In this document: positions 2,960 to 51,219 of the stretch, one piece after another
Numbering within the stretch: the stretch's first letter is position 1
Layout of the letters: every line of letters starts with the position of its first letter
Position numbers and translations under genes: made by a program
Virus record (IMG/VR): IMGVR_UViG_3300047561_001970
Location: 21,100 to 85,099 of that record
Source: a virus
Lineage: Duplodnaviria; Caudoviricetes
Length of the DNA stretch: 64,000 nucleotides
Direction: 5' to 3' (one strand)
The notes under the pieces: model-generated
The model's input: only the letters and a program-made list of their open reading frames with translations
What the model was told of the DNA's origin: nothing
Database searches by the model: none

Positions 2960-4396
2960 ATGGACTATGATGTTAATAGCGATGCTTTAGATAAAGCACA
3001 GAACTCCTATAAAGATCTGTACGCAAAAACATATAGTGTACCCAGAGAGCAGCTCAATAATATGGGTCAAGAAGACTTGGACGCGTTAGAAAAGACACTT
3101 GCTAATCGTGCTAGCAAGGTCGCTTTTACAGATATTAAACCAGCAAATCGTCCTAAGCCCGCAACCGCAATTACAACAAAAGATGTGACTCTGCCCAAAG
3201 TAGAAGAGACAGAGCCACCTATTAGCATGAGCAGTGAAGCCTCCTCACTTGTTGCTCCTTCTCCAGAAACACAACAAATTCAACCCTCATCTTCTCCCAA
3301 CATGGGCACGTTGCCTGTTACACAGCTGTCTAATGCAACAAACACGGATAATTCTCAAGAGATCAAGCCTCCTGTAGTGCAAAACATTACCGTGCAGCAG
3401 GAACTTCAACTGCGCAAAGAATACCCATTTTTTGACTTTGACAAATTACCACAAGATGGGGAGCAAGCAAAACGCTTTGAAATGTTTAAAAAGGACTTGA
3501 TGTCACAGTTGAGCAGCAAGCAAAATACTAATCCTAGTAATATACCTGTAATTGCTCCAAATAATGAAGCAGAGGTACCTAGTACCATAAAAACTCCTGT
3601 AGACACAAACGATATACTGAGTGTAGGTGATAAAAATACATCCATTACTGTGGATCAAGAGCGTCAGTTACGTGAAGAGTATCCATTTTTTGACTTTGAT
3701 AAGTTGCCAGAAAATGTAGATGAAGCAAACACTTTACAGGCACTGAAAAAGAATCTTGTAACACAGCTGGATGAAAAGAAAGTACAACAAGCTGCTCCAC
3801 TTGCTACACTGCCTGAACCTATTCTACCTGTTGAAGTTCCAGTTTCGCAAAACAATAGCATAGAACCATTACAGACTATACCTGAAACTGTAAACCCATC
3901 ACCAGTTAACAATACGCCGCCCACACCAATTGCTAAACCTACTGAAGAACCAATGTCGCCTGTTAATGAAGCAGAAAAGTACCCGGCTGCGGAAGAGAAT
4001 ATAAACGAAATAATTGCCAATATAGCCAAGCAGTATCCTCAACAGAATGCCCCAGTACAAGAGCCAGCTACACCTGTAACTAGTCTTTCTGAAAGTGCAT
4101 TAAAATCAATCAATGAAAATATTACAAATATGGTCAAAACAACGACAACGTCTTCTAAGGAATTAAAAGGCTCAATAGATGAGTTAAAGTCTATTGCTGG
4201 GCAGATTCTAGCCTATTTGCCTAGCATACAGCCATCAACCAATGTAGCAGTATCACAAAATGGAGAGCAACAAAAATCTCAACCAATTAATTCACGGTTA
4301 ATTGAGAGTGTTAGAGATGAGTACAGAAAACAGACTAGCAAAGGTATCATAGACATCAATAATAGTCGCACTTCATTACCAGGATTCACAATCTAA
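2960..4396 (+). CDS. Pro/Gln/Glu-rich low-complexity protein, possible tape-measure/hub (gp29 position)
   Basis: 478 aa, mostly predicted disordered, with a duplicated motif QLR.EYPFFDFDKLP. It lies between the gp26-like and gp48-like genes. Function is inferred from synteny only. Confidence 0.35.
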   Translation: MDYDVNSDALDKAQNSYKDLYAKTYSVPREQLNNMGQEDLDALEKTLANRASKVAFTDIKPANRPKPATAITTKDVTLPKVEETEPPISMSSEASSLVAPSPETQQIQPSSSPNMGTLPVTQLSNATNTDNSQEIKPPVVQNITVQQELQLRKEYPFFDFDKLPQDGEQAKRFEMFKKDLMSQLSSKQNTNPSNIPVIAPNNEAEVPSTIKTPVDTNDILSVGDKNTSITVDQERQLREEYPFFDFDKLPENVDEANTLQALKKNLVTQLDEKKVQQAAPLATLPEPILPVEVPVSQNNSIEPLQTIPETVNPSPVNNTPPTPIAKPTEEPMSPVNEAEKYPAAEENINEIIANIAKQYPQQNAPVQEPATPVTSLSESALKSINENITNMVKTTTTSSKELKGSIDELKSIAGQILAYLPSIQPSTNVAVSQNGEQQKSQPINSRLIESVRDEYRKQTSKGIIDINNSRTSLPGFTI

Positions 4397-5775
4397 TGAA
4401 TTTATCTAATACACTATATTCTTTTAAAGAACAAGAAAAGCGATTTGGCGCACCAAAAGCGGTTCCTGTGCAAGGTGGATCATCCACAGGCGGTGCAAAT
4501 TGCATAGGCGACACTGCAACAGGATTTTCTCTATATGATGTTATCAATGATTTTCAATGGACAACCTCTCCTGCTGAAAGTAAAGTTGGCGTTCCCGAGA
4601 TTTTCTTAAAAGAAAAAAGATTGATTACTAATTCCTTTGTTGCACAGGCTGCCTACTATACATACGCGTTGCAAGAATCTACTGCAGATGCAACCACCTT
4701 TGTTGCAAATTTTAAGGCAAAATTTGGTACCCTCGCTGGCACAGCTCTAGATGCAGCATTAGGCGCTGCCATAACAAATCAACTTGGTGGTAGGCAAATA
4801 TCACAAGCAGTGGGCAAGGGCGCTAGTCTATCGCCACAGCTAGCTGCATATTCTAGTATTATTCAGGCAGGCACTCAGGCTGCAGGAGGGGCTGTTGGTG
4901 CAAGTATAGGTGGCGCAGGAGTTCTTAATAATCTAAGTCGACTGGCGGGGGGTGCTTTGGATATTGCGCAAACTGCTGGAGCAAACCTAAATGTTGAGAG
5001 TTTAAATAGCAAATACTTGCTACCATATGAGGGGCTATATTTAACGGAGGATACACAATTTTATTATAGATTTCCATACTTTGTTAACAACTTGAATGAC
5101 ATTAGTAACAAATTTAGTAACACACCAAATCTCAATCCTGCAGAAATAGGTGGCCCAGCTGGATCATTCTATGGCTTATCTGAAGGTCTGGGAGCTGCTG
5201 CAATGACTGTAGCTGCTAATGCAAACTTAAATGCACCTGGGGTATATATAGAAAAACCAAAATTTTATAATTTTAGTGAAGATGGTGAAGCTTTAGTATT
5301 TAAATTCCCTCTTGTTAACACTGGATGGGCAACTTACACAGACGTATTACGCAATTGGCAATTGCTGTATTTACTAGCCTATCAAAATAGACCCAATCGA
5401 CGAAGCAGAGATTTAATTGATCCACCTGTAATTTATGAGGTTAGTATTCCGGGTTCTCGTTATTATCCCTACGCTTACATCGAGACTATGAAAGTTGCGT
5501 TTGTTGGGTCTGTAAGGAAGATGTTGATTGATGTTCCATATGGCACCAGCACAATAAAGATTGAATCCATCATACCAGATGCTTATGATGTGACGATAAC
5601 TCTGAGAGCCTTGGTGAGAGAATCGCAGAATTTCCTGTATTCTATGCTATACGACAAATATAACATTATTTCAACTTCATCAACTAGAACTTTGCAAGAA
5701 ACACAAGATATAATTGGGGTGCCTAAAGAATTTACTGGTGTTGGTGGTGTATTTAGACAGGGAGCAGCACAATGA
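4396..5775 (+). CDS. Baseplate tail-tube junction protein (gp48-like) with Gly/Ala-rich insert
   Basis: C-terminal FKFPL.NT, NRP.R..R.LIDPPVIYEVSIPG...P.AYI..M.V.F, IP.AY.VTITL pattern of the gp48 family. Confidence 0.6.
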   Translation: MNLSNTLYSFKEQEKRFGAPKAVPVQGGSSTGGANCIGDTATGFSLYDVINDFQWTTSPAESKVGVPEIFLKEKRLITNSFVAQAAYYTYALQESTADATTFVANFKAKFGTLAGTALDAALGAAITNQLGGRQISQAVGKGASLSPQLAAYSSIIQAGTQAAGGAVGASIGGAGVLNNLSRLAGGALDIAQTAGANLNVESLNSKYLLPYEGLYLTEDTQFYYRFPYFVNNLNDISNKFSNTPNLNPAEIGGPAGSFYGLSEGLGAAAMTVAANANLNAPGVYIEKPKFYNFSEDGEALVFKFPLVNTGWATYTDVLRNWQLLYLLAYQNRPNRRSRDLIDPPVIYEVSIPGSRYYPYAYIETMKVAFVGSVRKMLIDVPYGTSTIKIESIIPDAYDVTITLRALVRESQNFLYSMLYDKYNIISTSSTRTLQETQDIIGVPKEFTGVGGVFRQGAAQ

Positions 5776-11044: not shown

Positions 11045-11083
11045 TATTTATGTTCTTATAGAACAATTATCCTTATATAAATA
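11045..11083. promoter_or_regulatory. Back-to-back divergent late promoters (minus CATAAATA 11052-11045; plus TATAAATA 11076-11083)
   Basis: The boxes are 6 and 5 nt from their start codons; a small palindrome TGTTCT-TAT-AGAACA (11051-11065) lies between them. Confidence 0.7.
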
Positions 11084-20100: not shown

Positions 20101-21933
20101 GAGACTTTCAACGCAACTATTCAAACATATTCATATATGCTAACAGTTACAGCTGTGTCAGGTGATACCTTTGCAGGGATTGTAGACCCACCATTCACAT
20201 CATTGGATTATACTCTTTCAGCGGCAATATATCTTTATCCATATGCAGATTACAAAAATTTTACTGCTCCTATTAATTGTGATATCATACGTCCAACTTA
20301 CCCTGATCCAAGTGTTCTTAAATTTGTATTTAATTCACCTGTGTCAGCTGTTGAAAGTGTGCCCTTTTGTAGCAATCCTCAAAGTATATATAGAGATGTA
20401 TATATTACTAAAACAGGATCTGGTAGTGGTGTAGTAATAACAGATCCATATTGTATAGATTGTGGAAATATTTGCTTCAACCAATTTCCTTATAGTAGCA
20501 CTGTCTCCATTATAGCCTCTGCTGATACTGTTAGCGAATTTGGCGGTTGGGTTGGTGGACCATGTGATGGGTCGATATTTGCTGATTGTTCATTTAACAT
20601 TACAACTAATCAAATCATAACAGCTGTGTTTAATGCTATTCCGTTTTATACTATTGGAGCATATTCACTGGGATATTATGTAACTCCAGATTACCTTATT
20701 AACGTGGGCAGAGTAACATCAACTGATGGTATCATAAGCACACCTACTGCTTTCTCTCATTCTTATAGACGCAATACTAATGTATCCTTATCATGCCAAC
20801 CTGCAATATCAGGATGGTGGTTCATAGGTTGGGATGGCGGTCCCTGTGCAGGTATATCCGATAGATATATTTGCTCGTTTTCTGTAACAGAGCCGAATAG
20901 TGTGTCTGCGTTTTATGTACGGTATTATGATTACAATGTAACTGTGAATACAGTTACAACAGCAAGCGATCTAATAGATTATGGTCGTGTTATTTCAAGA
21001 ACTAACTTTGATAATACATATAATATCAATTGTTCGGGAAGAACAATTGGAGGACAAACTGGCACCTGTACGTATCCATTCACAGGCACAGGACAAATCA
21101 ATGGAATCGGCACGTCAGTGACGCTGAGTGCCATACCTGCAAGAGGTTATCAATTCAAAAGATGGACAAATGCCCCATCATATGCAACTACCAACGAAGA
21201 TGCTACATCATTTGTTATAGCCTCTGATGTTTCTTTATCTGCAATATTTGATATTGGATTTTACACCTTGTCCATTATCTTTAGCGGTGGTGGCATTGGT
21301 TATGTGAAGAACGATAACCTGGGCATATATGCTCAAGCTGGTAATCCTAATTTTGCCACTCAGTACAACATACTAAGTGGCACAGTTTTAACATTGTATG
21401 CCTCTGCATTTGCCGGTAATAGTATAATGGGATTATCGAGCAGAAATACAGTATTAGGGTTTGGCATTAGTGCCATACCTATTACAATGAACACAGATGT
21501 TACCATGGTGGCAATATTCAGCGCCGGCTACTTCTACACATTACAAATACAAAGATTTGGTACTAATTGCGGGGTAATATCTAGTGTGCCAGTTAAGATC
21601 AACTGCGGACCAGCCAGTGGCCCTGTTTGCACAGGGGTATTTGCAGCAGGTACACTTGCCTCTGTACAGGCCACTCTTACCAATACATGCCAGGTCAGTG
21701 CTTACTTTGGTGATAGCGTCATATACCCATATGCTGCAGGTGCAGGTATTACATTTACACCGTCAATTACTGCAGAACTAATTGAAACTCAGACTCTTCT
21801 GCTTGGAGATGCTAGCTTGAGCTTAGACACCACAGGTGCGCCATATGCCTCCAGTGGTAGTATAAGAATATCTAACGGAGAAGTACGCATACCAATAACT
21901 ACAAATAGAGTTATTTCCGCGTATCTTTATTAA
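17137..21933 (+). CDS. 1598-aa virion structural protein with several divergent InlB-B-type (bacterial repeat) Ig-like domains
   Basis: Repeated units such as I.KTGSGSG.V...P..IDCG..C...F...S.V...A.A......F.GW.GG.C.G...C.F.....Q.ITA.F from about 20400 to 21900. Confidence 0.65.
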   Translation: MSTNAFKYSILDESQEPLDYYAPVTFLEWFNQQNLINFDINVTFQSYKNYILEWSAYKGKNNTEAQNIIRDSYIQILREIVINFSTEEEKRFINNANFSDPLDLDVILPFFIQKIKSICLFYANTREEIKTAPIQHNLRGSNLGVENLIKKLIFDAARTNQIDYTQYTCSFPPVSAIARGLSVYVEELYDTTDTYYNISPLSATGIFEQYSSSRQSLSTANINSIYPNLYISFKNAIIDAIKQYPFFLRTLGTNNFTINPILSGDELYYLKNRDFISYLSGGTEELKLNVLKMLAPKYVGTDFYYLSTGNTTTDIVSGILFTTRSTTSSPTLNFLNKQYPTTASVPNLNSLYTQYQLGRFFLPQYTGLLIHNTPEKTFDIDTTRITPNTIYAFPDPAVVGNVSYNSNTDTTHVPLAYTINVEWNKINRSNQFAFGDVLSNSYNQLYYGYQSQAQDLQKDISGMSKAVDNIQFWTGDRQGTWANPDIWTGLDQFDSLPLQERQNSLLTGSLTPTYWGSDIFGNEYGVLKNIFPLRALSAIDYDDTSIMPGSNTVILSSQSISLKSTYDRKYTIPGIFYFRGIDSLVAPASAALSAIFIKYPEQVREEMSSAVLYFNMYYDTFVLETANYVIIDSLSYNFDTSKIITNNTTGFYIPKYFTNSKLERFAGEWYSERENTLYVAFLNLLPYLSGSNYKVLYPSIYKTPLTNINVEKIYPSTITSNFSINSYSLSAGFAEPPQINIVEVDGVSFTKSEKKSLFNFTYLAKNLNGMPLFVNEQLKDGDWDRFLETFNPRMFRPYYFVYDNNYYNPSMPYLVKYVGAVGGTMGGQSLKSGYLDVGFKGEPKELTYLFADGIKPVQINNIGTYIVQFDWESYNEVTVFVGCSGFLIKNIGKNLIFNSNALDAVVLDTYGETISEAIAFSTTYATVTSLSVISYYPALTALATILSINTISGQQLDSLPGQPNYGLIPSLYGDYNKWVISTLPNLTLETFNATIQTYSYMLTVTAVSGDTFAGIVDPPFTSLDYTLSAAIYLYPYADYKNFTAPINCDIIRPTYPDPSVLKFVFNSPVSAVESVPFCSNPQSIYRDVYITKTGSGSGVVITDPYCIDCGNICFNQFPYSSTVSIIASADTVSEFGGWVGGPCDGSIFADCSFNITTNQIITAVFNAIPFYTIGAYSLGYYVTPDYLINVGRVTSTDGIISTPTAFSHSYRRNTNVSLSCQPAISGWWFIGWDGGPCAGISDRYICSFSVTEPNSVSAFYVRYYDYNVTVNTVTTASDLIDYGRVISRTNFDNTYNINCSGRTIGGQTGTCTYPFTGTGQINGIGTSVTLSAIPARGYQFKRWTNAPSYATTNEDATSFVIASDVSLSAIFDIGFYTLSIIFSGGGIGYVKNDNLGIYAQAGNPNFATQYNILSGTVLTLYASAFAGNSIMGLSSRNTVLGFGISAIPITMNTDVTMVAIFSAGYFYTLQIQRFGTNCGVISSVPVKINCGPASGPVCTGVFAAGTLASVQATLTNTCQVSAYFGDSVIYPYAAGAGITFTPSITAELIETQTLLLGDASLSLDTTGAPYASSGSIRISNGEVRIPITTNRVISAYLY

Positions 21934-35422: not shown

Positions 35423-36097
35423 ATGGCTTTAAGACTATTAGTTGAAACACCTGCTCCTGAAGATCAATACGAATACGTGGTTGAAGAGAAGAATGGTAGC
35501 CAATCAAGCACCATGTACATCAAAGGCCCTTACATGCAGTGTGAAGAAGTTAATAAGAATAAAAGAGTTTATGATTCAGGGGAAATGGATCGCGAAGTCA
35601 ATCGTTATATTCATGAAATGATCAAAACAAACAGAAGCATGGGTGAATTGAACCATCCAACTGCTGCTGAAGTCAATCTGGAGCGTGCCTGCCATTTGGT
35701 AACAGAAATGAATCGCTCTGGTAATGTGTATTATGGTAAGTCCAAAGTACTAACCACCCCCATGGGTCAAATTGTTCGCAGTTTGATCAATGATGGTGTG
35801 CGTGTTGGTGTAAGTTCTCGTGCTCTAGGATCATTGCAAGAGATGGGCAATGGTGTTAACCGGGTGAAAGATTTTCGTCTTGTGGCTGTGGATTGTGTTG
35901 CAGATCCAAGCTTTCCAAAAGCATTTGTAAATGGCATTCTGGAATCCAAACAGTTTGTTGCAACTGGTGATGGTCATTTTGAAGAATATTATGATTCTTT
36001 CAGTGACAAGTTGCGCAACTTGCCAAGAAAAGATGTGGAAGGTTATCTCAAAGAACAGATTGTGGAGTTCTTTTCGAAGATTAGCAAAGTTCTATGA
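35423..36097 (+). CDS. Prohead core protease (T4 gp21-like)
   Basis: YIKGP.MQ.E..N.N.R.Y, GELNHP (catalytic His), GVSSRA.GSL (catalytic Ser), D.VADPS...AFV.GI.ES. Confidence 0.96.
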   Translation: MALRLLVETPAPEDQYEYVVEEKNGSQSSTMYIKGPYMQCEEVNKNKRVYDSGEMDREVNRYIHEMIKTNRSMGELNHPTAAEVNLERACHLVTEMNRSGNVYYGKSKVLTTPMGQIVRSLINDGVRVGVSSRALGSLQEMGNGVNRVKDFRLVAVDCVADPSFPKAFVNGILESKQFVATGDGHFEEYYDSFSDKLRNLPRKDVEGYLKEQIVEFFSKISKVL

Positions 36098-36495
36098 ACC
36101 AACCAATTGAAGAAATTGCCCCAATAATTGCAGGTGCACTTGCAGGTGCAGCTGCTGAAGAGCTGGGTGCAGGTCTTGCTGGTAGATTGATTGCCACCAC
36201 CCTTGCAAAAACAGCTGCAGACAAAATGTCTGCACAATCTGAAGATGAATCAGAGGAGTGCGAGTGTGGTGAAAATGAAGAATGCGGATGCAAGAAAGTT
36301 GTCCAAAACCCAGCAGATTATATGCCTGCTGGGAATAAATATAATACAGTTATGAAAGAGCGCACACATATTGCACAACTTTTAAAGAATTTAAACGAAA
36401 AAAATTACGCCGAGGCCCATAAATATTTAAAGAAGATTATGGAGTCCAAATTACAAAACCGTATTGCCTCTGTGAAAGGTGTGAAATTATTCTAA
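36094..36495 (+). CDS. Small prohead core protein (gp67/gp68 position); possible internal start at 36352
   Basis: Located between protease and scaffold; acidic and Ala/Gly-rich N-part; AATAAATA at 36334-36341 precedes in-frame ATG 36352. Confidence 0.55.
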   Translation: MNQPIEEIAPIIAGALAGAAAEELGAGLAGRLIATTLAKTAADKMSAQSEDESEECECGENEECGCKKVVQNPADYMPAGNKYNTVMKERTHIAQLLKNLNEKNYAEAHKYLKKIMESKLQNRIASVKGVKLF

Positions 36496-37457: not shown

Positions 37458-38930
37458 ATGAAATCAATCAGACCGACAACGGCCTATATTGATGAGTCTC
37501 GCGCCAAAGCGTTGCTCGAAAAGTGGAAGCCAGTTTTGGATTACACTTCAGACAACGTCAGGCCCATTGAAGACGATCACACTCGCTTAAATACAGCTAT
37601 GCTCTTGGAAAACCAAGAGTCCTGGTGTATTGGCGAAGCGAACGTTGCCGGTGGAACAGGCTCGGTATTCGGTGGTTCATACAGTGGTACAGGTGGAATG
37701 GGTGGCCAAGGCGGTGCTTTTGGCAACGCGTCCCCCCAAGGCGACTGGTATGCAACTGGCGATTCCCGCTTGCCCAAGATACTCATCCCAATGATTCGTA
37801 GAACGTTCCCCGAGCTAATCACCAATGAAATTGTAGGCGTACAGCCCATGGGCGGACCAGTAGGTCTTGCCTTTGCTTTACGTTATAAGTATTCCGCTAA
37901 CCAGCTAGGTAATGATGGCGTCGACGGTTCCGGCACAAATGCCGGTGCCGCTCTCGGCAGCCCTCAATCCGCCGCTGCAGGCAAAGAACTTGGCTACCAG
38001 TATCTCGATACCCGTTACACGGGCACATCGAGCTCTAAACTCTCCGGTGGCGATGCCTTGGCAGCCTCTCTCTTCCCCTCAATCGGGGCAGATCAGGGCG
38101 TTGCTCAGGTCCTCGCTAACTTCGAATTGACGGGTAAAATCCCTCAGATCGAAGTTTCGTTTGAAAAAACGGCCGTCGAAGCTGGTACTCGTAGACTTGC
38201 TGCACGCTGGTCTGTGGAACTCGAACAGGATCTTAAGAACATGAATGGCATCGATATCGATACCGAACTCACCAACGCTATGTCGTATGAGTTGCAGGCC
38301 GAAATCGATCGCGAAATGATTGTTCGTATGATCCAAGTTTCGCTGAATGCTGGAGCCGGTACAGGTTATTCTGTATGGTCCCCCGCTTCCGCGGATGGTC
38401 GCTGGTTAGTAGAGCGCAATCGCGACTTCTACCAACGTTTGATCATCGAGGCTAACAGAATCGCAGTTCGTAACCGTCGTGGTGCTGCCAACTTTATAGT
38501 TGCAACACCTCGCGTTTGCGCGATTCTCGAGATGCTTCCTGAGTTTCAATGGGTGCCCGTCCAAGGCAATGTCAACACTCAACCTGTTGGCGTAGCCAAG
38601 GTAGGCAACCTAGGTGGTCGTTTCAACGTATACCGTGATACACGCACAGAAGCCCAATATGAGGGTGGATTGCGTGGTACGCGCGTAGAGTACGCCCTAT
38701 TGGGCTACAAAGGACCAGAGTTTTATGACACTGGTATCATCTACTGCCCGTACATCCCGGTTATGGTACAACGTACAATTGGCCCCAATGACTTCAGCCC
38801 CCGTGTTGGTCTTCTGACCCGCTACGGTGTTGTTGATAACATCTTTGGCGCTAACTTGTATTATCATACCATCTTGTTGAGCGGTCTCGGTCAAGCGTTC
38901 ACGCCCGGTACACAATCTGTGTACTTCTAA
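37458..38930 (+). CDS. Major capsid protein (T4 gp23-like)
   Basis: L.EKW.PVL, TA.LLENQE, ILIP.IRR..P.LI..EIVGVQPM.GP.GL.FALR..Y, R.L.A.WS.EL.QDLK..GID...EL.N.MS.E...EI.RE, G.L.GR..VY.D, YCPY.P. Confidence 0.98.
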   Translation: MKSIRPTTAYIDESRAKALLEKWKPVLDYTSDNVRPIEDDHTRLNTAMLLENQESWCIGEANVAGGTGSVFGGSYSGTGGMGGQGGAFGNASPQGDWYATGDSRLPKILIPMIRRTFPELITNEIVGVQPMGGPVGLAFALRYKYSANQLGNDGVDGSGTNAGAALGSPQSAAAGKELGYQYLDTRYTGTSSSKLSGGDALAASLFPSIGADQGVAQVLANFELTGKIPQIEVSFEKTAVEAGTRRLAARWSVELEQDLKNMNGIDIDTELTNAMSYELQAEIDREMIVRMIQVSLNAGAGTGYSVWSPASADGRWLVERNRDFYQRLIIEANRIAVRNRRGAANFIVATPRVCAILEMLPEFQWVPVQGNVNTQPVGVAKVGNLGGRFNVYRDTRTEAQYEGGLRGTRVEYALLGYKGPEFYDTGIIYCPYIPVMVQRTIGPNDFSPRVGLLTRYGVVDNIFGANLYYHTILLSGLGQAFTPGTQSVYF

Positions 38931-38972
38931 GCCGAACTCAACGGTAGTACTAAATTTCCAGTATGTCCTGGT

Positions 38973-39002
38973 AAAAAAAGAGGCCTTCGGGCCTCTTTTT
39001 TT
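38973..39002. terminator. Rho-independent terminator after the capsid gene (cUUCGg tetraloop), potentially bidirectional
   Basis: AAAAAAAGAGGCC-TTCG-GGCCTCTTTTTTT: perfect 13-bp inverted repeat with a 7-nt T tract. Confidence 0.95.
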
Positions 39003-39022
39003 GTTTAAAGGTATGCATAAAA

Positions 39023-39030
39023 TATAAATA
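39023..39030 (+). promoter_or_regulatory. Late promoter TATAAATA
   Basis: Perfect consensus, 4 nt before ATG 39035. Confidence 0.8.
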
Positions 39031-39034
39031 ACAT

Positions 39035-40120
39035 ATGGCCATAGTACCACTTTCTGACTTAAAAACTTCATTCTCATCTGGCCACATTCCAAGCTCCAAT
39101 GATTTTGCAAACTTAATTGACACCACCAGCGCTCTACCCTCAGGTGGTATCATTGGTTCAGTATACACAACAAACTTGACGCTAGTGCAAGGCGCGACCG
39201 GGATCCCCGTGATTATAGGTGGTAATACCTATTATCTGCCTGTGTTCACCACAGTCACTGCACCTTCACCAAACCAAACAGCATACACCACCACAGTGAG
39301 ACAAACATATCCAAATGCAATGCTGGCAGAAACTGTGGGTGCAAGATGTGCCACAGTCATACAGAGTCTGTGTGGTTATGCACCAGGTGATGTGATTGCA
39401 GCAGCTTGCATATGCTCAGATGATAAAAATGCTCCCATTTTCCCCAACAACACATTTGGTCAATACCCCACATCTTTGCAACAATTTTCTGGGCCATTCT
39501 TCGCAGGTGGCATTGGTGGTTATCCTTTCCCAGGCATTGTGGGGCTGTTTGCATGGATGAGCCATGTGACCACACCTGGTGCATTGTTCATATATGTGCA
39601 CCCACACATTGGCATCACTCAGAGTGGTCAGGTGGGGTTCATGAAGCGCCGAGGTCAACAAGGCAATCTGGATCGAACATGTGGTGCTGTGAATGCAGCA
39701 CAAGCCAGAATTGTGGGTACACTGAGTGCAACAGCACCTGTATTCCCAAGTGCAGAATTTACTGTTAATGATTTTCAACAATATACTCTGGTGAATGCAC
39801 TGTATTCCAACAAAACCACACGCAATGCACTCACAGCAGCTGCACCAGTGCAAGGTGGCACATATGCCCAGAGAATGAAGATAGCTACTGATGCTATTCT
39901 GGTTGCAGCATTGAGTGCAGTGGAAACAATTTTGCCCATATCTTATGGTGCCTTCTTCCAGGGTGAAAACACAGTGGATGTGTTTGTGCATGCAGGCACA
40001 TTCATCAATGTGGATGATGGTTACAGTGCTTACATAGACACCATTGCATTCAAGAAATACAATCCAGTCACACAGACATTCACCACCCTCACCAATGCTT
40101 TCACAGCAGCTTTTGTTTGA
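39035..40120 (+). CDS. LCIB-family (theta-class) carbonic anhydrase-like domain fused to an N-terminal virion-anchor-like segment
   Basis: CICSDD...GPFFAGGIGGYPFPG..GL.A...H...GALFIY..PHIGIT..G.VG...R.GQ.....TCGAV gives the Cys/His/Cys Zn-ligand arrangement of the LCIB/theta-CA family. Confidence 0.8.
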   Translation: MAIVPLSDLKTSFSSGHIPSSNDFANLIDTTSALPSGGIIGSVYTTNLTLVQGATGIPVIIGGNTYYLPVFTTVTAPSPNQTAYTTTVRQTYPNAMLAETVGARCATVIQSLCGYAPGDVIAAACICSDDKNAPIFPNNTFGQYPTSLQQFSGPFFAGGIGGYPFPGIVGLFAWMSHVTTPGALFIYVHPHIGITQSGQVGFMKRRGQQGNLDRTCGAVNAAQARIVGTLSATAPVFPSAEFTVNDFQQYTLVNALYSNKTTRNALTAAAPVQGGTYAQRMKIATDAILVAALSAVETILPISYGAFFQGENTVDVFVHAGTFINVDDGYSAYIDTIAFKKYNPVTQTFTTLTNAFTAAFV

Positions 40121-40135
40121 TACAGTTCAAACAAA
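40112..40135. other. AT-rich hairpin TTTGTTTGA-TACAGT-TCAAACAAA covering the stop codon, between convergent units
   Basis: Perfect 9-bp inverted repeat; possible terminator or RNA end-protecting stem. Confidence 0.5.
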
Positions 40136-40178
40136 TAAACTTATTTAATGCTTCACCCTCGCACCGTATACGGCGCAG

Positions 40179-40379
40179 CATTTTGCACCTGATGTCACCA
40201 CCAGGATTGGACTATATCTTCACATGTTTGTGCTGCTTGTTCGTGCTGGTTATTAAGGATTCCTGTTCCTCCAGTAGTCTCTACACCTTCCAGAGAAGCG
40301 TCTCTGGCTTGGCTCGGGATTGTCTCCACAGGAGAGTTTCCCCGAATTAAAGCAGTAGGGGCCATTGTTTCAAAGATCT
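40179..40379 (-). ncRNA. Group I ribozyme/intron core (P3-P9, IA-like with P7.1 insertion); no host gene or homing endonuclease evident
   Basis: Minus strand: P3 CUGCUU(40355-50)/AAGCAG(40238-33); P4 UUCGGGG/UCCCGAG; J4/5 AAA and J5/4 CAA; P5 UCUCC-UGU-GGAGA; P6a CCAGAGA-CGCU-UCUCUGG; R element GAAGGUGUAGAGACUA; P7 G(A)GACUA(40281-75)/UAGUCC(40214-09); P7.1 CUGG/CCAG with inner AGGA/UCCU; P8 CACA/UGUG; S element AAGAUAUAGUCC; P9 CCUGGUG-GUGA-CAUCAGG (GNRA loop). Ends are approximate. Confidence 0.88.
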
Positions 40380-40384
40380 GATAA

Positions 40385-40392
40385 TATTTATA
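40385..40392 (-). promoter_or_regulatory. Late promoter TATAAATA immediately upstream of the group I RNA
   Basis: Perfect consensus on the minus strand, overlapping the TAA stop of 40388-41410. Confidence 0.65.
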
Positions 40393-41410
40393 CATAAACA
40401 TACAAAGAATGTAAGTACCCTAAACCTAATCCGTCACCAGACACATGCACAGGTCCTGCACTCTTATATCTACCATGGTACTTAGCTGGTTTAAAATATT
40501 GTCCATCAGGGTATGTTACTGGATTAAAAGTCCAGCGATAAGCAGGCATAATGCTTGCATCTTGCAGTTTGTTGCTGTTGGTTTCAAAGGTTTCTGCCCC
40601 CCACATTATTCCTGTTCCTGAAGCTGGAATAGTAAAAAACCCTACTTGCCATTTATTAATGGCCATGTTGAACAATATGGTACCATCAAATGCCAGTACC
40701 CCACCTGTACTAGTTAACTGATATACTGGACCAAAATTATTACCATTGGCATCTGTATAGGAATCAGCTTTTTTAAAATATTCACCTTCAAATGTGCCAC
40801 CATCAGGCCCACCAGTTGTTAAGAAACCTTCTTGTGTAACAGTTTGTCTTCCTTGTTGTGGTCTCAATTGCCTGGATCCCCACATGCACCAGCTTATGAT
40901 CAACCTAGCAGAACATGTCAAAGGCCGTGTAGAGCCTGTGCGATTTTTAATCCAAGCAGTTAAACTGGATTTGAATGCTGCACTGTTGTATTTGCTGTCA
41001 TTGATAATTTTTGTGAATTTAAAATTAGGGTATGAATAAAAAAGAGCTGCATCTGGCACATCTCTTATTCTTTTGATATTGTATGCTTGATGTCCGCTCA
41101 TAACATAATCTGTTGATGCATTAGCTGCCGATAAAGAAAAGCTGTGCATGGTTATGTATCTTTGAACCAGTCCTACTTTGCCACTTGTGGAGTATTTGGC
41201 ATCTAAATCACTATTTGCCTCACCACCATATCCATCATGTATCACATAACTATTGTTATAATATTCACTAATTTTTCCGCTATCTCTTGCTTGACCATCA
41301 TATGTTATGAGAAGTGGTCGGCTTCGAGGGTAATTTTGAGGAGTACTCACACCATCTACTACCGAAATGGAAGTCTTCACAAACTGACTGGGCTGAGTTG
41401 CAATCATCAT
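40388..41410 (-). CDS. Hypothetical virion-associated protein
   Basis: Last gene of the minus-strand fibre operon; start placed at ATG 41410 (ATGA overlap with the upstream stop); Gly/Thr/aromatic-rich beta composition. Confidence 0.6.
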   Translation of the reverse strand: MMIATQPSQFVKTSISVVDGVSTPQNYPRSRPLLITYDGQARDSGKISEYYNNSYVIHDGYGGEANSDLDAKYSTSGKVGLVQRYITMHSFSLSAANASTDYVMSGHQAYNIKRIRDVPDAALFYSYPNFKFTKIINDSKYNSAAFKSSLTAWIKNRTGSTRPLTCSARLIISWCMWGSRQLRPQQGRQTVTQEGFLTTGGPDGGTFEGEYFKKADSYTDANGNNFGPVYQLTSTGGVLAFDGTILFNMAINKWQVGFFTIPASGTGIMWGAETFETNSNKLQDASIMPAYRWTFNPVTYPDGQYFKPAKYHGRYKSAGPVHVSGDGLGLGYLHSLYVYV

Positions 41411-42252
41411 ATGTACCGTCCTATGAGATAAACTTTCAAACCCACACCAGGCATGGTACTGCCCACTTGTGTCACATTGATGCACATTCTGTCATTCTCT
41501 ACACATGCATAGCTAACTGCTGTATCAGCTACTACTGCCCCTGCAGTCATGGTCACTGTGCCTGCAGTGTTGTTGTTGGTTTGAGAGCTCAAAGAGAATA
41601 TGAGACTGGATCCAGTAGCAGCAGTATTCAGACCACCTTTGATTTTGGTCAGAGTGAAGCTTTGAGGCACAGTGAAAATTATTTTGGCATCACCTGTGGT
41701 GATGTTGGCTTGTTCATCACTGGCTGCAAAAGCTAAGCTGGTCAATGACCAGGCAGCACTGTTGGTATTTGTAGTAGTGTATGTGCTGTTCCATGCATTG
41801 CTGTTGCCCCCAAGTGCAGTGATAATATTATTGGTACTCAAGACACCTGATACAGTAGTATTGCCAGATATGGCCACCTTGGCAGTGCTGTCAATTGTTC
41901 TTCCTATGGCAATTCTGGTACCAGATACAATGAAAGTGCTGGTATTGTAGGCACCAGCTACAACTGTGTCTGTGTCCAATACCTCCAATATGGGCAATCC
42001 GGTAATATCATTAACAGACATTAAGGATCCAGTCAGGGCATCAGAAACAGAAAACAATCTGCCCTGTGCACCATCCACGGTGAATCTATTCAATGCTGTT
42101 AGTGCTGTGGTATAGCTTGTAATGTTTAACCCACCACCATTATCGTAATTTAAACGAACAGCGCTGTTTAATGCAGCTACTGTAGAGGCTCCCGCTGCAT
42201 TTCTATCAAAGAATATGGCGCCAGAAACAGGTACAACTAACACATTAGGCAT
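41407..42252 (-). CDS. Tail-fibre-type protein
   Basis: F.VDG.QGRLFSV.D.LTGSL.SVNDI.GLPILEV and GGNSNAWNSTYTT...SA.W motifs seen in phage fibre proteins; TATAAATA at 42266-42259 lies 6 nt upstream. Confidence 0.6.
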   Translation of the reverse strand: MPNVLVVPVSGAIFFDRNAAGASTVAALNSAVRLNYDNGGGLNITSYTTALTALNRFTVDGAQGRLFSVSDALTGSLMSVNDITGLPILEVLDTDTVVAGAYNTSTFIVSGTRIAIGRTIDSTAKVAISGNTTVSGVLSTNNIITALGGNSNAWNSTYTTTNTNSAAWSLTSLAFAASDEQANITTGDAKIIFTVPQSFTLTKIKGGLNTAATGSSLIFSLSSQTNNNTAGTVTMTAGAVVADTAVSYACVENDRMCINVTQVGSTMPGVGLKVYLIGRYI

Positions 42253-50853: not shown

Positions 50854-51219
50854 ATGCATGATGTAATTAGAGACCTTCTGCAAATGCAGAATCAATTGCG
50901 CATATTTCATTGGCAGACCAAAAGCTATGCAGCACACAAAGCGCTAGGCAAAGCTTATGAAAGTCTTGACGAACTCATTGATACTTTTGTGGAAACAGCG
51001 CTGGGCCGCAAGGAAGCCAGCTTCATCAACGGCAGCATGACCATCAATTTGTTTGATAGTCATAAATTAACTCATGCAGATGCTCTTGAGACATACAAAA
51101 CATTTCTATGTGAATTCAGTCAAAAATTAAGCCCAGACAACGACACAGACCTCACCAACATAAGAGATGAAATGCTAGGTGTGCTCAATCACACAAGTTA
51201 CCTGCTGACATTAAAATAA
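50854..51219 (+). CDS. Ferritin/Dps-like four-helix protein (DUF5856-like)
   Basis: Q.Q.RIFHWQT.SYA.HKALG..YE.L.EL.D.FVE...G; L.NI.DEM.......YLLTL. Confidence 0.8.
   Translation: MHDVIRDLLQMQNQLRIFHWQTKSYAAHKALGKAYESLDELIDTFVETALGRKEASFINGSMTINLFDSHKLTHADALETYKTFLCEFSQKLSPDNDTDLTNIRDEMLGVLNHTSYLLTLK

Follow-up and report, generated by a model that had tools for sequence, protein, structure and literature searches.

A protein that joins a complete carbonic anhydrase (CA) domain of the LCIB, or theta, type to an N-terminal tag otherwise found on fibre-like proteins is encoded next to the major capsid gene of an uncultured T4-like phage, the virus contig IMGVR_UViG_3300047561_001970 (Duplodnaviria; Caudoviricetes). 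This IMG/VR record is 85,099 bp long and about 40% complete; the part analysed here, called the window below, comprises 64,000 nucleotides (positions 21,100 to 85,099 of the record), and coordinates count from its first letter. Considering the domain, the tag and the gene location together, we hold it somewhat probable that the product of this CA gene is a catalytically competent zinc enzyme, which is made late in infection and docked on the phage particle via its N-terminal tag. The parts of the gene on which this reading draws are:

39035..40120, plus strand: the CA gene, an open reading frame (ORF) of 361 residues for the tagged LCIB-type carbonic anhydrase
39035..39139, plus strand: fibre-type N-terminal tag, residues 1-35 (MAIVPLSDLKTSFSSGHIPSSNDFANLIDTTSALP), delineated with a profile of eight N-termini
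39140..39259, plus strand: residues 36-75, a low-confidence prediction of a short beta-hairpin module with YYLPVF at its end (predicted local distance difference test score, pLDDT, 41-59; strands at residues 56-61 and 64-69)
39260..39274, plus strand: residues 76-80, the Ala/Pro/Ser/Asn-rich linker APSPN (within TTVTAPSPNQ), the junction at which the N-termini of relatives switch
39275..40117, plus strand: residues 81-361, the complete LCIB-fold CA domain, as judged from an AlphaFold2 (AF2) model (pLDDT close to 90 across residues 81-358) and from Foldseek
39413..39424, plus strand: codons of Cys127-Ser128-Asp129-Asp130, with Cys127 on PtLCIB4 Cys46 and Asp129 on Asp48
39605..39607, plus strand: codon of His191, aligned with PtLCIB4 His102; invariant
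39680..39682, plus strand: codon of Cys216, aligned with PtLCIB4 Cys126; invariant

A first-pass annotation, made from the letters alone, had read this protein as a theta-class (LCIB-like) CA, and the two kinds of check it named for the fold, a profile search with LCIB_C_CA (PF18599) and a structure prediction, both return this family. Residues 111-275 match PF18599 with an E-value of 4.2e-24 and 85.5 bits against a cut-off of 25 (86.4 bits in a six-frame search of the contig), and phmmer against the PDB sequences retrieves 6kfs (1.6e-15), PtLCIB4 of the diatom Phaeodactylum tricornutum (3e-13) and two more LCIB_C_CA entries, with weaker matches to LCIC and LCIB. When the AF2 model, which was built on 74 homologs, is compared with known structures by Foldseek, the template modelling (TM) score is 0.86 to 6kfs, 0.78 to PtLCIB4 and 0.69-0.76 to Chlamydomonas LCIB (CrLCIB) and LCIC, with a probability of 1.00 for all of them at a sequence identity of ~20%. 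A classical beta-CA (PF00484) is not indicated by either route: LCIB_C_CA is the only Pfam match, and Foldseek reaches beta-CAs only with E about 1e-2 and TM scores of 0.4-0.48. Judged by sequence and predicted fold, the CA gene product is a true member of the LCIB/theta-CA family with its Cys/His/Cys site.

The motifs that had suggested the family at the outset, namely CSDD (residues 127-130), a GPFF-type stretch (GPFFAGGIGGYPFPG, 153-167), PHIGI (190-194) and CGA (216-218), all stand where the annotation had placed them in the 361-residue ORF. Their alignment with PtLCIB4 was anchored by the S47R entry 5b60, in which the Arg comes directly after the first Cys; on this numbering, Cys46, His102 and Cys126, which we take to be the zinc ligands of PtLCIB4 (reportedly from the work of Jin et al. 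in 2016), do fall on Cys, His and Cys. Across 121 homologs, down to about 36% identity, C127, D129, D130, H177, H191, R205 and C216 are invariant (121/121), and this conservation argues for a working metal site. H177 aligns with PtLCIB4 His88, the residue altered in entry 5b5z. Residue 128 comes directly after the ligand Cys and is a Ser like its PtLCIB4 counterpart; 113 of the 121 homologs have Ser there and the other 8 Ala. What a Ser as opposed to an Arg means at this position we presume from the existence of the S47R mutant entry. Asp129, two residues after Cys127, completes a set of likenesses to PtLCIB4, PtLCIB3 and 6kfs that spans the common Pfam family, the predicted fold (the LCIB family equals the theta-CAs and is structurally a subgroup of the beta-CAs), the Cys-His-Cys ligands with an Asp two after the first Cys, the His at the position of His88 and the Ser after the ligand Cys. 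The PtLCIB3/4 proteins are constitutively active (PMC9614477). Unlike these proteins, the window protein is phage-encoded, carries a 75-residue fibre-type module at its N-terminus and no transit peptide, and belongs to a separate long branch of sequences from phage contigs and metagenomes; the protein has no link to photosynthesis or a pyrenoid.

The N-terminus leads in another direction. The first-pass annotation had likened it to the anchors of phage structural proteins and proposed that the motif be sought in other virion proteins. A profile of the eight N-termini, run against 1.84 billion representative proteins, gives 35 matches, nearly all of them at residue 1 of otherwise unrelated proteins; among these are a protein with collagen triple-helix repeats (P0145) and one with tail-fibre repeats (P0151), the latter matching genes of cultured phages annotated as ‘minor tail protein’ and ‘chaperone of endosialidase’. 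On such fibre-like proteins the tag conforms to the consensus M-A-I-V-x4-L-K-x2-F-x2-G-D-x-P-x3-D-[FY]-x-N-L-I-D-[ST]. In a tblastn search of the deposited phages with the first 80 residues, the sole match is the N-terminus of a 635-residue ‘structural protein’ of the Flavobacterium phages lotta8-1 and pippi8-1. The lotta8-1 protein (gp46), whose structural annotation is by similarity and whose gene lies directly behind the baseplate genes, has 37% identity over residues 5-71 (pairwise E 2e-10), in an alignment that reaches LPVF. In these tail-fibre-like carriers, the same ~35-residue tag at residue 1 is followed by collagen repeats, fibre repeats or unassigned domains, in contrast to the enzyme that follows it here. 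A search of PHROGs yielded nothing beyond a marginal match of the N-terminus to an unnamed family. Within the CA family, the N-terminal stretch, which AF2 models over residues 1-75 as two short helices and a hairpin, is kept in 15 full-length relatives; those with other N-termini begin to align only from about residue 70-84. The likeness to structural-protein anchors that had been proposed is therefore upheld, and the assignment of this N-terminus as a fibre-type tag is supported by the profile and alignment evidence. The tag motif can also occur as an internal repeat, to judge from a 544-residue metagenomic RHS-repeat protein (P0122), the C-terminal end of which consists of seven tandem copies of the ~30-residue motif (TILKSFFQTGDKPTQAQFADTIDS).

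The relatives of the CA protein comprise 166 metagenome protein clusters and 40 IMG/VR loci. None is found by tblastn among 50,697 GenBank phage records; Foldseek against BFVD shows no LCIB fold, and we found no paper on a phage LCIB or theta-CA in the literature, so that the initial remark that no described phage theta-CA was known to its author stands against both collections. In a quick maximum-likelihood tree, 74 phage-type sequences are split from 37 cellular homologs by a long branch (SH-aLRT, the Shimodaira-Hasegawa-like approximate likelihood ratio test, 99), where the metagenome proteins are labelled ‘phage’ on the assumption that likeness to the IMG/VR loci indicates such an origin. 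The phage LCIB family is apparently a large branch restricted to phages. Its CA domain is seen with a fibre-type tag, with a ‘MPNVPNFxDLxRxQR’ tag, with a coiled-coil-like ‘MRSSRQYIDGLKQ...LLEER’ leader, with an extra domain of 120 residues and with no extension. The fibre-tag clade is nested within the ‘MPNVPNF’ clade, and when the two fibre-tag lineages are compared, their tags share 57% identity and their CA domains 87%. For these reasons the CA protein is, on the evidence of sequence comparison, a modular fusion of two modules, in agreement with the earlier suggestion of two sources.

That suggestion had leaned on a different argument, a drop in CpG frequency within the gene. The contrast is numerically real, with 6 CpG in 206 nt and 5 in the next 880 nt, which correspond to observed/expected ratios (o/e) of 0.60 and 0.11 (Fisher p 0.008, on small counts), and yet it makes a weak case for fusion, as the CpG step is absent from the homologous genes of the relatives examined; we accordingly rejected it as a fusion mark. 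The wider stretch 37458-42252 of the window is itself a CpG mosaic, with an o/e of 1.11 in gp23 against 0.11-0.26 in the CA domain and the minus-strand genes that follow, and over the same stretch the GC content differs far less (0.52 versus 0.40-0.46).

The gene stands at the end of a structural block. On the plus strand, between 33.9 and 38.9 kb, lie genes for a head-tail adaptor, a head closure protein, a gp21-type prohead protease, two small ORFs and a gp23-type major capsid protein; gp21, gp22 and gp23 are all represented, with the CA gene as the final member immediately behind gp23. The gp23 itself has 33-36% identity to cyanomyovirus gp23, and no more. Between the protease and scaffold genes, a 133-residue ORF at 36094-36495 (plus strand) with an acidic, Cys-containing middle (SEDESEECECGENEECGC) matches no family, and its position suggests a prohead core protein. 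On the 3' side of the CA gene, minus-strand genes converge on it: two ORFs without assignment, two with matches to PHROG families for structural proteins of the virion, and an ORF of 2195 residues. Directly downstream, at 40188-40406 on the minus strand, there is a ribozyme of the group I intron type (Rfam RF00028, 62.5 bits). An 82-nt stretch of it (40241-40322) resembles, at 78-88% identity, both DNA of the Flavobacterium phage immuto and the region of the psbA intron in Synechococcus phage S-CBWM1.

Two elements separate the CA gene from gp23:

38972..39003, plus strand: hairpin resembling a terminator (GAGGCC-TTCG-GGCCTC, bordered by an A-run and a T-run), located past the gp23 stop at 38930 and ahead of the CA gene
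39023..39030, plus strand: TATAAATA box, an exact match to the T4 late-promoter consensus, which ends 4 nt before the ATG

The hairpin, which a simple terminator scan did not list and which was detected by direct RNA folding, has a dG of -19.4 kcal/mol and a z-score of -4.5, and 0 of 200 shuffled sequences fold as well. It is kept in the close relatives L002-L007, and the claim that the gene follows a gp23 terminator agrees with this strong structure and its T-run. The companion claim, a perfect late promoter, holds in part. The match is exact, the NATAAATA-N4-11-ATG geometry is found before gp21, the CA gene and the majority of the other genes with a box on the 85-kb contig, the gp21 and CA genes have an identical ‘acat’ spacer between box and ATG, and the box recurs before the CA gene in relatives whose CA gene adjoins the portal gene or occurs in tandem. 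The count of TATAAATA in the window (8 found, 6.6 expected) is, on the other hand, not above chance, which leaves the position relative to gene starts as the informative feature. Boxes of the NATAAATA type 4-11 nt before starts include those at 11076, 24887, 35411, 39023, 42266 (minus strand) and 50841 of the window, and no Shine-Dalgarno sequence fits between them and the start codons; should these boxes act as late promoters of the T4 type, their transcripts would have no leader or almost none.

The gene neighbourhoods of the relatives fall into several types:

window lineage (L002-L007): CA gene directly after gp23 in 6 of the 6 loci with upstream sequence
second fibre-tag lineage, 13 loci: CA gene directly after the portal gene
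non-T4 lineage, 7 loci: CA gene two to four genes after the major head protein gene and before a virion structural protein gene
L020 and L021: a 45-residue tag is common to the CA protein and two or three non-CA neighbours, one of them with a C-terminus like that of baseplate or fibre connectors; a subtilase gene lies alongside
jumbo T4-like relatives: tagged and untagged paralogs in tandem, surrounded by genes for HNH endonuclease, RNA ligase and endolysin and at a great distance from the capsid gene

In L020 (5141-10594) and L021 (7884-13151 and 16555 onwards), three or four proteins per phage bear the common ~45-residue tag (MPNVPDFRDLxRxxR...FSxKNVI) on unrelated C-termini, and the subtilase of this cluster is a Peptidase_S8 protein; a Pfam search of these tag-sharing partners and of the two minus-strand neighbours of the window gene found no match. 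Among the large phages, five loci in the range L026-L031 (e.g. L027 7818-9856, L030 6859-8921) have a long, extended paralog followed 4-10 nt on by a short, extension-less one, both with the CxDD motif, in a layout that recalls the LCIB/LCIC hetero-complex. A structural neighbourhood and a tag common to fibre-like proteins both recur in this comparison; the gene resides in head or other structural modules in at least three lineages. The first-pass annotation had gone further and seen in the place next to gp23 the site at which T4-like phages keep decoration genes. As a family-wide decoration slot this was rejected: it is specific to the window lineage, other lineages have the gene behind the portal gene, in a group of fibre-like genes or a long way from the capsid gene, and in other T4-like relatives the capsid gene is 23-70 kb away. 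Hoc and other head-decoration or fibre proteins of T4 are non-essential, late and encoded near gp23/gp24, and Hoc, which consists of Ig-like domains, has no enzymatic function. The CA gene is comparable to the Hoc gene in its location near the major capsid gene, with no similarity of sequence or fold, and an attachment of the CA to the head would be hypothetical.

The cellular homologs nearest to the phage branch (n = 37, collected by a pattern-based scan, which may bias the signal towards Bacteroidota) come almost entirely from Bacteroidota and Balneolota. Those of Bacteroidota, the closest cellular sequences and cytoplasmic, are about 245 residues long, with no leader, 27-41% identity and the CSDD/CCDD and GGxxGYPFxG motifs; they differ from the phage protein in being shorter, in having no N-terminal module and in their operon with bestrophin and Ion_trans_2 genes. 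Of the five bacterial genomes examined, four (L046, L049, L057 and L069, at about 3300-5750) have a gene for a bestrophin-family channel (PF25539) immediately before the CA gene, and an Ion_trans_2 gene in turn precedes the bestrophin gene in three of these four loci. As bestrophins conduct bicarbonate, this adjacency supports a role in inorganic-carbon handling for the Bacteroidota branch. The host of the window phage, too, is probably a member of Bacteroidota, because the tag match leads to Flavobacterium phages, the ribozyme match to phage immuto and the cellular homologs to Bacteroidota. A cyanobacterial host, or a link to the CO2-concentrating mechanism, was considered and is unlikely, given the 33-36% identity of gp23 to its cyanophage counterparts and the pointers of tag, ribozyme and homologs to Bacteroidota and Flavobacterium phages. 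The CAs of the alpha, beta and gamma classes on viral contigs and in giant viruses catalyse the same reaction; they are of another class, lack a virion tag and have been interpreted as metabolic genes. In BFVD, matches to CAs of Pandoravirus and Harvfovirus have E about 0.03.

We posit the following course of events for a particle-docked enzyme. Residues 81-361 would form a complete LCIB/theta-type CA with a zinc held by Cys127, His191 and Cys216 and with Asp129 beside it, for which the expected reaction is CO2 + H2O <-> HCO3- + H+, and residues 1-75 would be a fibre-type docking module, connected to the enzyme by the short Ala/Pro/Ser/Asn-rich linker. Transcription would be late, from the gene's own TATAAATA box behind the gp23 terminator and alongside the head proteins, and the tag would most likely anchor the CA on the particle, where it would be a minor component of the virion. 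The steps that we regard as least certain concern purpose: the particle might bring a ready-made CA to a newly infected, probably Bacteroidota, cell or to its surface, and the delivered CA might there speed the interconversion of CO2 and bicarbonate for bicarbonate-dependent biosynthesis, for instance by carboxylases.

Several points weigh against such a docked enzyme. Its N-terminal module is predicted by AF2 with low confidence, and the lotta8-1 gp46 match has a database-wide E of only 0.01. Regex and profile searches of the 85-kb contig and of four related fragments, all 20-40% complete, find the CA gene as the sole tag carrier, and the 50,697 GenBank phage records hold no cultured relative. 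The usual state of a fibre anchor is a trimer, whereas the LCIB/beta-CA fold is dimer-based. The ‘late’ meaning of the NATAAATA box is assumed from T4, and the same box stands before a small number of genes that do not belong to the virion modules, for example a Dps-like gene at 50854. A free extracellular CA seems less useful, as it would have little obvious effect on bulk CO2/HCO3- that is already equilibrated. Membership of the LCIB family is no guarantee of activity, since in vitro no CA activity is measurable for the LCIB of Chlamydomonas (PMC9614477).

This last point, along with a fibre-type tag that puts the CA where the receptor-binding part usually sits, would fit a fold repurposed as a non-catalytic structural or binding domain. 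A precedent for such repurposing is vaccinia D8, an alpha-CA-like virion adhesin in which the zinc ligands are lost. In the phage family, the zinc ligands and the neighbouring active-site residues are invariant across 121 diverged homologs, which would be unexpected if catalysis had been lost, and we consider this explanation very improbable. Also improbable, if less so, is an internal head protein with an N-terminal capsid-targeting sequence, which would be packed with the scaffold and injected with the DNA like IPI-III and Alt of T4. The gene does adjoin head-morphogenesis genes (gp21, gp22 and gp23 here, the portal gene in the second fibre-tag lineage), the N-termini are interchangeable on a constant cargo, and some relatives have coiled-coil-like, Glu-rich leaders (e.g. 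...FEQQLLEER...). The prohead protease gp21 of T4, however, cuts after Glu, and residues 1-98 of the window protein contain none; the first, E99, is inside the first long helix of the CA domain, so a gp21-type cut would enter the CA fold, which makes a capsid-targeting leader unlikely. The tag type, moreover, belongs to collagen-like and tail-fibre-like proteins, which are external.

An enzyme that stays in the cytoplasm is an explanation we regard as unlikely, though less so than the two foregoing ones. It would be an auxiliary metabolic enzyme acting late in infection, which would supply bicarbonate to carboxylases for nucleotide or lipid synthesis or buffer the pH, with its N-terminal module serving in oligomerisation or in localisation inside the cell. 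The intact and invariant active site would be expected of it, the cellular relatives lack a leader peptide and their genes adjoin one for a bestrophin channel, paralogs with no extension exist, and the position of the CA genes of the jumbo T4-like relatives, among genes for HNH endonuclease, RNA ligase and endolysin, speaks both for this explanation and against a particle-docked enzyme. What it leaves unexplained is the sharing of tags that otherwise sit on the N-termini of fibre-like proteins and the location in head or structural modules in three lineages; a supply for nucleotide synthesis would, besides, be expected early and not from a late-type box. These considerations incline us towards the particle-docked CA.

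The enzymes that we know of on phage particles act either on cell envelopes, as depolymerases and lysins do, or, once injected, on host macromolecules. If true, a particle-borne CA would be a new kind of cargo, one that links phage infection to CO2/bicarbonate chemistry. In a broader and more tentative form, which we put forward as possible, the CAs would make up an undescribed LCIB branch borne by the particles of freshwater phages, whose hosts are probably Bacteroidota, with interchangeable fibre-type tags and in some cases pairs of tagged and untagged proteins; they would then be the first known virion-borne enzymes of inorganic carbon, acting at or just after adsorption. The pairing of an LCIB-type CA with a bicarbonate-permeable channel is known from the algal CO2-concentrating mechanism, and the bestrophin-CA operon of Bacteroidota suggests that it extends to heterotrophic bacteria as well. 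The phage family, for its part, is a large, hitherto unrecognised branch of theta/LCIB CAs outside photosynthetic organisms.

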